NCBI GenBank assembly: GCA_964016885.1
Contig: OZ024743.1
Location: 291,772,001-291,836,000 of the forward strand
Source of the DNA: Eledone cirrhosa
Taxonomy: Eukaryota
Reading direction: 5' to 3'
Length of the DNA stretch: 64,000 nucleotides
In this document: positions 56,832-57,520 of the stretch, in pieces
How positions within the stretch are numbered: position 1 is the first letter of the stretch
Layout: every line of letters begins with the position of its first letter
Position numbers and translations under genes: made by a program
The notes under the pieces: generated by a model
The model's database searches: none
What the model was told of the DNA's origin: nothing
The model's input: only the letters and a program-made list of their open reading frames with translations

Positions 56832-57520
56832 CAGATTAAAGTTTAAGCAAATAATCGCTGCTTTCACCCTTAACGGGATCTTCTGATACTAAAAATCAAT
56901 CTGTGAACGCAGAAGTAAATATTTCAAAAATCGTTGCAACTGGAGGAAGACAGGAAGACGATACTTTGGTGAGATATGTTTCCCTGCTTGGTCCGGGTAT
57001 GTTCTTTGTAGAAATATTCAGAAGTTGTTTCTGCATGATGAATATAAGTCAATAGAGTGCTCAACCGAGGGAGCCAAATAGTAATAATAATACATTTGAA
57101 GACTAAAATCCCAAGAGGGCTCCATAAGGATAAATATGTATCTAATATATAAGAATCGTAGAGCATATATTTATTAAAATAAAAGATTAAAGTTTAAACA
57201 AAGAATCGCTGCTTTCACAAGTAACGGGATCTTCTGAAACTAAAAATCAATCTGTGAATGCAGAAGTAAATATTTCAAAAAAACGTTACAACCAAAGGAA
57301 GACAGAAAGACGATCCTTTGCTTAAGTATGTTTTCTTGCTTGGTACGGGTATGTTCTTTGTAGAAATATTCAGATGTTGTTTCTGCGTGATGAATATAAG
57401 TCAATAGAGTGCTCAACCGAGGGAACCAAATAGTAATAATAATAAATTTGAAGACTAAACTCCAAAGAGGGCTCGATAAGGATAAATATATAGCAAATAT
57501 ATAAGAACTGTAGAGCAAAT
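56832..57520 (-). mobile_element. Tandem dimer (351-bp period) of a miniature non-autonomous derivative of PLE family A
   Basis: Each unit is family A 5' UTR + first ~21 codons fused directly to 3' UTR + HHR; (TA)n on both sides. Confidence 0.85.

Follow-up and report, generated by a model that had tools for sequence, protein, structure and literature searches.

A pair of short tandem units on the minus strand of a 64,000-nucleotide stretch of the Eledone cirrhosa genome (the whole stretch is referred to here as the window) raises the question of how a repeat with hammerhead-like motifs and no protein gene comes to share its sequence with an autonomous Penelope-like element (PLE). The initial annotation read the locus as a direct snapshot of a hammerhead-only tandem parasite arising from its helper PLE. 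Birth from a PLE is borne out by the analysis below, and is recurrent; the self-spread and the working ribozyme that this reading implies are not.

The dimer and its parent family

The dimer has a period of 352 bp, one more than the 351 bp first given, with 2.0 copies and 89% matches at 56833–57526 on the minus strand (TRF), and its two units are 89.5% identical by BLAST. We number positions along the element sense strand as C n, with C1 the first base after an intron in the 3' UTR; on this scale a predicted stem has its 3' arm at C22–46 and its 5' arm at C347–364, the hammerhead-like core begins at C103 with a predicted cut after C143, 3' ends lie at C172 and C257–261, and the ATG is at C303. 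In sense order the insert reads C165–369, C15–367 and C16–172, with a short (TA)n tract at its 5' end (57519–57536) and a (TA)n target tract at its 3' end (56731–56831), and comprises one full and two partial units, two junctions and two hammerhead-like copies, all on the minus strand. The 5'-most partial unit (C165–369, 57322–57526) extends from the 5' UTR to about codon 22 and has a mutated start codon. The full 352-bp unit (C15–367, 56972–57323) contains the 3' UTR end, the hammerhead-like fold, both priming sites, the 5' UTR and about 21 codons, and the 3'-most partial unit (C16 to about C172, 56833–56970) stops at the family's first priming site and blends into (TA)n. The upstream junction (57322–57324, with 2–3 nt of microhomology) and the downstream junction (56970–56972) are equal in length and position, each joining C367–370 to C15–18, and have since acquired 4–5 substitutions. 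GC content is 0.32–0.34, and the sole reading frame is a by-product, a 46-aa read-through (56896–57036, minus strand, ATG at 57036) that fuses about 21 initial PLE codons to 3' UTR sequence; the peptide quoted in the initial annotation is real and opens this frame, and the ATG of the other unit is mutated.

Within the window, 56972–57323 aligns to a family-A PLE copy at 14243–14594 (87%), and 56832–56970 to family-A sequence at 11937–12077 (91%; both BLAST). The units do match family A and jump from the first codons (about codon 21) to the 3' UTR, and the deletion lies at the same place in both, as had been claimed. Its size is about 2,165 bp relative to the window's spliced family-A copy (about 2.1 kb in the earlier estimate), or about 2,900 bp relative to an intron-containing master unit of 3,258 bp. 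An 81-nt contig with 0 differences spans one dimer junction in 3/3 public runs, and public contigs hold similar joints; the runs represent one sample, with contigs of unrecorded kind that are possibly the assembly's own, and are used only to show junctions outside the assembly.

Two near full-length spliced copies of family A are arranged in inverted orientation at 11858–17262, with (TA)n tracts outside. One (11858–14696, minus strand) is a pLTR-ORF-pLTR copy assigned to the Hydra clade, with a spliced unit of 2,516 bp and a frameshifted ORF, and is a sister of the dimer's parent; the other (14698–17262, plus strand) is 93% alike, also spliced, and has a broken ORF. An intact copy elsewhere in the genome (L261) has an ORF of 708 aa with DKT, an RWK-like RWR, CxCX5C, CxxC and CxH motifs, plus a nuclease region of GIY-YIG type at its C terminus. 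A Pfam scan of this ORF gave 0 matches at E<=0.01, and the window family-A copy gives only a weak RVT_1 match (E 0.04). We assign the parent to the Hydra-clade PLEs on these motifs, as the clade is described in the available part of PMC8557442. The unit is 2,516 bp when spliced and 3,258 bp with the intron retained, against a Hydra-clade criterion of less than 3 kb. The 3' UTR of the master unit retains a GT-AG intron of 750 nt (L261:3355–4105) that ends at C1, a further locus (L063) retains about 150 nt of it, and the two window copies are precisely spliced, at 14608–14609 and 12092–12093. Since these two lack the intron, sense RNA was the template at least for them.

The family is abundant in the 3.0 Gb searched, with 19,250 exact matches to a 28-mer of the ribozyme region, 10,101 to a 3'-UTR 21-mer and 749 to an ORF-start 25-mer, and its ORF-bearing copies, whose 3' priming sites are C172 and C257–261, fall into several subfamily haplotypes. 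The dimer's haplotype is an older one, differing at 41 of 502 sites from its nearest ORF-bearing relative and at 62 from the window copy. We rejected the window ORF copy as the direct parent on this comparison and because both window ORFs are broken. Derivation from the PLE family of the same window is nonetheless upheld by the unit-to-family-A alignments and the pLTR sequence relation.

Several other elements lie in the window. On the minus strand, 48780–53460 is occupied by another Hydra-like PLE, decayed, tandem at its 3' end and weakly similar to family A in DNA sequence. At 45040–48460 the 3' end of another GIY-YIG element forms a long fold-back in which 3' UTR blocks are duplicated; its ORF (46536–47324) matches Pfam GIY-YIG at E 0.006. 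An inverted pair of near-identical 225-aa frames at 28235–29479 is GIY-YIG-nuclease-like by eye, with no Pfam match, and encloses a near-perfect palindrome of about 120 bp (28796–28918). Helitron-like remnants with two frames matching PIF1 helicase are present at 57–4320. A long inverted repeat at 58240–58930 (about 58390–58560 versus 58760–58925) ends at a (TA)n tract and is possibly another fold-back insertion.

Recurrence and separate births of deleted copies

Deleted copies of this kind, here called minis, occur throughout the genome. Of 6,379 candidates in a similarity search, 40 were scored and yielded 78 matches, and an exact search with the junction pattern gave 32 matches at 30 places, with 0 for the reversed control. 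Window-based queries favour window-like junctions, so we read two position-ordered samples instead. In sample 1, the first 100 of the 749 ORF-start matches, the ORF continues in 71 copies, 23 jump to the intron end or the 3' UTR, 5 pass into other DNA and 1 carries a deletion inside the ORF. Sample 2 consists of 60 loci from the first 100 of 504 upstream-anchor matches, chosen outside already-read loci and over-representing breaks that abolish the first anchor; here 42 stay in the ORF, 13 jump, 3 have internal deletions and 2 are other. With 23/100 ORF-start copies affected, the notion of a one-off deletion is refuted. Minis make up 1/30 of 3'-anchored copies. A rough estimate, not a count, puts the total at a few hundred mini loci, or a few per cent of the family. 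The expected (TA)n insertion sites are also observed, on at least one side in 45/46 mini loci and on both sides in 36.

To the tally of junctions in these samples 49 loci contributed clean calls, 10 of 59 rows having been dropped for more than 4 mismatches, and these loci have 33 different junctions. A single founder deletion is rejected because the junctions differ by locus, and the spliced-intron alternative fails because no GT-AG intron fits 33 different breakpoints. Seven junctions, excluding the passenger form described below, recur at 2–5 loci each, and 6/7 of these are on more than one parental haplotype, the window's own junction being present on three; the haplotypes of recurring junctions are also found in ORF-bearing copies. 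Private mutations are shared by 3/28 locus pairs with the same junction and by 30/323 other pairs, which gives no excess. The flanks of mini loci are unrelated, save for common repeats and one segmental duplicate. The proposal that one deletion had been amplified as a parasite is not supported by the haplotype and private-mutation results. We conclude that the minis were born separately on several autonomous subfamilies and form no single deletion family, and that, in the genome samples on which this verdict rests, no mini lineage has spread by itself. Some daughter insertions may be hidden, as very young sources would leave no shared private mutations. Microhomology is not required, since 13/33 junctions are blunt; its mean length is 1.0 nt against a background of 0.63, and 10/33 junctions have 2–3 nt compared with 14% of background pairs.

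One junction, which joins position 373 to position 4, is abundant, with 10/100 copies in sample 1 and 106 matches to a marker motif. Its upstream flank is common to 24/25 loci and the downstream flank is also shared in 17 of those 24; the shared block spans kilobases and lies within a multi-kb composite repeat present at dozens of places (L193–L220, L263–L270). With its flanks in common, this form rides as a passenger in the larger repeat, and we rejected it as an amplified parasite. One- and two-junction alleles of this mini occur within the same flanks. Unit number also changes at the DNA level, since 5/25 passenger-type loci have an extra unit inside the same flanks. The same junction is found with other flanks at two places (L107 and L167), and these leave a small opening for rare re-mobilisation.

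The hammerhead-like motif and the predicted long-range stem

Both dimer units retain a hammerhead-like fold, which supports part of the claim that the ribozyme was retained, but the core carries the U4A change, the stems are damaged and there is no Rfam match. Copy 1 (57183–57256, core from 57236, minus strand) has a broken stem II and a C>T change in stem III, and copy 2 (56833–56905, core from 56885, minus strand) has one stem I mismatch. An Rfam scan of the window returned no hammerhead at E<=1, and only AT-repeat microRNA noise. The window copies are further decayed than the family majority sequence, which forms 21/21 named pairs of a type I three-way junction with the cut triplet CUU and keeps G8, A9, G12, A13, A14 and A15.1-U16.1; its core is CAGAAGA and not CUGANGA, with U-U at 10.1-11.1.

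Genome-wide, the U4A core has 19,250 matches and the canonical core 76. Among the first 10 of these 76 we find 5 inversion junctions, 2 5' truncation points and 3 intact contexts, and the canonical base is present in 3/71 pieces of the oldest haplotype, 2 of the 3 having been picked by the canonical-core search itself; with many matches being inversion-junction artefacts, no canonical-core subfamily is established. Natural hammerheads tolerate the U10.1-U11.1 mismatch, and a viroid with a U4C variant keeps sufficient activity (PMC3088659), while CUGA-turn mutants have low activity in the available part of a mutational scan of another hammerhead (PMC9901934). A literature search for activity of a U4A hammerhead found nothing. 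Only 1/422 pieces has its 5' end at the predicted cut site, C144, and there is no pile-up, a result that does not decide on activity because ligated circles would show none. On its sequence, self-cleavage by the U4A hammerhead is doubtful and unproven. The family has nonetheless expanded massively, to at least 19,250 copies of the motif, despite the fixed U4A change, and these approximately 19,000 copies test whether PLEs need ribozyme cleavage at all. Several inverted insertions (L253–L258) turn at C98–105, just 5' of the hammerhead core, and 9/422 pieces start at C98, partly picked by the search used; C98–105 is a possible RT pause or fold-back site.

Folding of the whole spliced unit predicts a long-range stem between C347–364 and C22–46, with most pairs at probabilities of 0.72–0.97; in the dimer its arms correspond to 56975–56992 (5') and 56940–56964 (3'), both on the minus strand. 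The unspliced unit, too, shows the stem in its minimum-energy fold. Folding programs have a bias towards pairing the end regions of long molecules. As an isolated duplex the stem has an energy of -15.9 kcal/mol, which is not significant and is weaker than the best partners of 54 tiles, whose median is -18.8, and four intron sites complementary to the ORF-start arm are stronger, at -16.4 to -19.8 kcal/mol. The fold of the unit is no better than shuffles (z +0.45, -1.52 and -0.72) and has no rod-like shape.

The breakpoints lie close to the predicted stem. Tight clustering in early searches was partly query bias, which the two position-ordered samples correct, and we set aside p-values for breakpoint clustering because the interval was picked after inspection of the data. 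In sample 1, 10/13 events break at C368–385, just past the helix. The 13 left breaks of sample 2 fall at C368–388 (3), C295–363 (8) and C513–514 (2), and in 8/8 anchored arms whose left break lies at or before C363, the right break is at C44 or later, as if both stem arms were lost together. It is likely, though not proven, that the modelled stem guides the breakpoints. In the available part of PMC3846280 the pLTR plus tail of Adineta Pen2a covers 22 codons, and a 3' RNA end within the first codons may be general.

Template of the tandem copies and relation to known systems

Repetition of one junction within a locus is observed directly: 15/16 multi-junction loci have the same junction throughout (small later losses being allowed in three), as do 8/9 loci with inverted arms. 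Inverted arms typically end at different priming sites, and would need a sense template to be read twice. The upstream intron is reached by 0/69 junction arms and by 27/80 ORF-bearing pieces (Fisher p 6e-9), junction arms that reach C10–15 meet a second junction in 7/7 cases, and 0/53 mini loci contain any ORF or intron piece. Repetition of the junction within loci and the failure of all 69 arms to enter the intron make a short RNA already carrying the join the likely template. The overlapping pieces in the window share 0/33 private substitutions, as would be expected of a one-step insertion, so that any duplication took place at or right after insertion. Two loci count against a template that already carries the join: L322 has two arms with two different junctions, and in L187 one arm carries a junction and its partner contains the intron, the pattern expected of separate jumps on a long RNA.

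Our preferred reading, which we hold to be probable, is that the dimer is an ORF-less PLE mini, made by an RT that lapped its own RNA of about 350 nt with the ends joined or held together. The element RNA would fold so that the ORF start (C347–364) pairs with the 3' UTR (C22–46) and encloses the non-coding domain, and the ORF loop would be lost at the RNA level, either by decay trimmed toward the stem or because a short transcript stopped there. This would leave ragged RNA ends adjacent to each other, to be ligated or to be crossed end to end by the RT. Target-primed reverse transcription at (TA)n, over one to three laps, would then yield tandem and inverted arms with one junction. Each of these RNA steps is read back from the DNA that it would have left. 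Most of the products are likely dead ends, because poor cutting is predicted for the U4A core and none of the mini lineages has spread by itself. A wider proposal, that PLE RNA routinely sheds its ORF at the stem to give small circular RNAs that are rolling-circle copied by the element's own RT, is tentative. If true, the genome records hundreds of independent retrozyme births and holds DNA evidence for a PLE RT running laps on circular RNA, and the U4A hammerhead either cuts with help in vivo or explains why newborn circles do not become self-spreading retrozymes.

Three other accounts bear on the same data. One or a few deleted copies could be a propagating retrozyme-type parasite, transcribed, cut by their two hammerheads, circularised and re-inserted by the helper PLE. 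Many minis do have two hammerhead-like copies around one unit, and the majority sequence keeps its 21/21 stem pairs and the conserved positions listed above; the natural tolerance of U10.1-U11.1, the activity of the viroid U4C variant (PMC3088659), the seven junctions at 2–5 loci and the passenger-type junction in other flanks (L107, L167) also count in its favour. However, U4A outnumbers the canonical core by 19,250 to 76 and CUGA-turn mutants are weak in what is available of PMC9901934, 6/7 shared junctions are on different haplotypes with no excess of shared private mutations, the abundant form has a common upstream flank at 24/25 loci inside a multi-kb repeat, and minis are a small minority at 1/30 of 3'-anchored copies. 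We regard such a parasite as unlikely.

Similarly improbable is that the RT skips a looped-out ORF on intact full-length RNA and that the tandem units arise later by unequal crossover or slippage. This would account for L187 and L322 and for the mild microhomology excess (2–3 nt in 10/33 junctions against 14% of background), and has parallels in the template jumps documented for R2 (PMC3414825, in part), in the DNA-level gain and loss of units in the passenger form and in the other internal ORF deletions (1/100 in sample 1 and 3/60 in sample 2). It is difficult to reconcile with inverted arms that end at different priming sites and yet have a common junction in 8/9 loci, with second laps at C10–15 that all jump again (7/7) and never enter the intron, and with the 0/33 private substitutions common to the window units. 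Lastly, a full-length copy could, once inserted, have lost a segment through DNA repair and then been duplicated locally, or an intron could have been removed. In Adineta vaga, microhomology-mediated deletions put PLE copies out of action (PMC3846280, in the available part), and on the antisense strand the breakpoints have a GT..AG pair nearby; but the upstream intron is in 0/69 junction arms and 27/80 ORF-bearing copies, and the real GT-AG intron is elsewhere, ending at C1. Splicing on either strand is rejected as the cause because the breakpoints vary (33 different ones) and 13/33 are blunt, and these processes, largely refuted, are very improbable.

The lapping of short, end-joined RNA that we prefer touches on two questions, the origin of animal retrozymes and how PLEs make tandem copies, and, if right, would show how ribozyme-carrying RNA parasites are born. 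Parent and product are present in one genome with readable junctions, so that RNA ends and circles can be predicted exactly. For PLE tandems, circular templates have been proposed, without direct evidence in the available part of the source (PMC4209133; for general background see the parts available of PMC2377424 and PMC6765202). The initial annotation held that the link between retrozymes and PLEs was usually only hypothesised, but co-occurrence and pLTR homology had already served as arguments for it (PMC7229834; bioRxiv 10.64898/2026.07.22.740005, both as available in part). The second of these, a preprint by Li, Clavereau and Pollet (2026), proposes, in the part available, local amplification of a terminal sequence and describes Xenopus retrozymes as pLTR-related; it argues from pLTR homology and not from deletion junctions, and in our case, unlike theirs, deletion junctions, repeated origin and parent subfamilies are visible. 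A literature search of mostly non-subscription papers and the main text of the preprint did not turn up a description of stem-side junctions recurring in PLE minis, and they may be on record elsewhere, for example in the preprint's supplements. As far as searched, what is new is the population view, with repeated births at a preferred place and a signature of multi-lap copying.

Comparisons with known elements, each drawn from the available parts of the sources, place the minis between several classes. Like the animal non-LTR retrozymes of Cervera and de la Peña (2020, PMC7229834), the dimer has short (about 350 bp, against about 150–400 bp for the class), low-GC (32–34%, against below 45%), non-coding tandem units, a type I hammerhead-like fold, pLTR sequence of a co-resident PLE and signs of short-RNA lapping. 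Unlike them, the minis have a U4A core in place of a canonical or minimal type I core, and no abundant family that spreads as its own. The parent resembles Hydra-clade PLEs such as Hydra-1_Obim (Craig et al. 2021, PMC8557442) in its ORF motifs, its (TA)n targets, the place of the hammerhead immediately ahead of the 3' end, and its partial-tandem and inverted insertions, and differs from the Hydra families with canonical hammerheads in its U4A core, and from the clade in keeping a 750-nt 3'-UTR intron, with a unit of 3,258 bp; mini-derivatives are absent from the available part of that Hydra-clade account. The non-autonomous Chlamys PLEs, e.g. MRC1 (Craig et al. 2021), are likewise non-coding, have pLTRs, form head-to-tail multimers and resemble autonomous families. 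Those, however, are active families whose likeness lies at the 3' end, whereas the minis are many single births that join both parent ends and do not self-spread. The SIDEs of R2 (Eickbush and Eickbush 2012, PMC3414825) are also short and internally deleted and keep a ribozyme and an RT-recognised end, but are old, rare lineages with proven ribozymes, five SIDEs from four events. Minis join both parent ends and have lost the ORF as SIDEs do, and are young, recurrently born, tandem and mostly singletons, with no persistent trans-mobilised lineage. Our verdict is that a PLE has repeatedly given birth to retrozyme-like minis, a process that resembles the proposed birth step of a non-LTR retrozyme.
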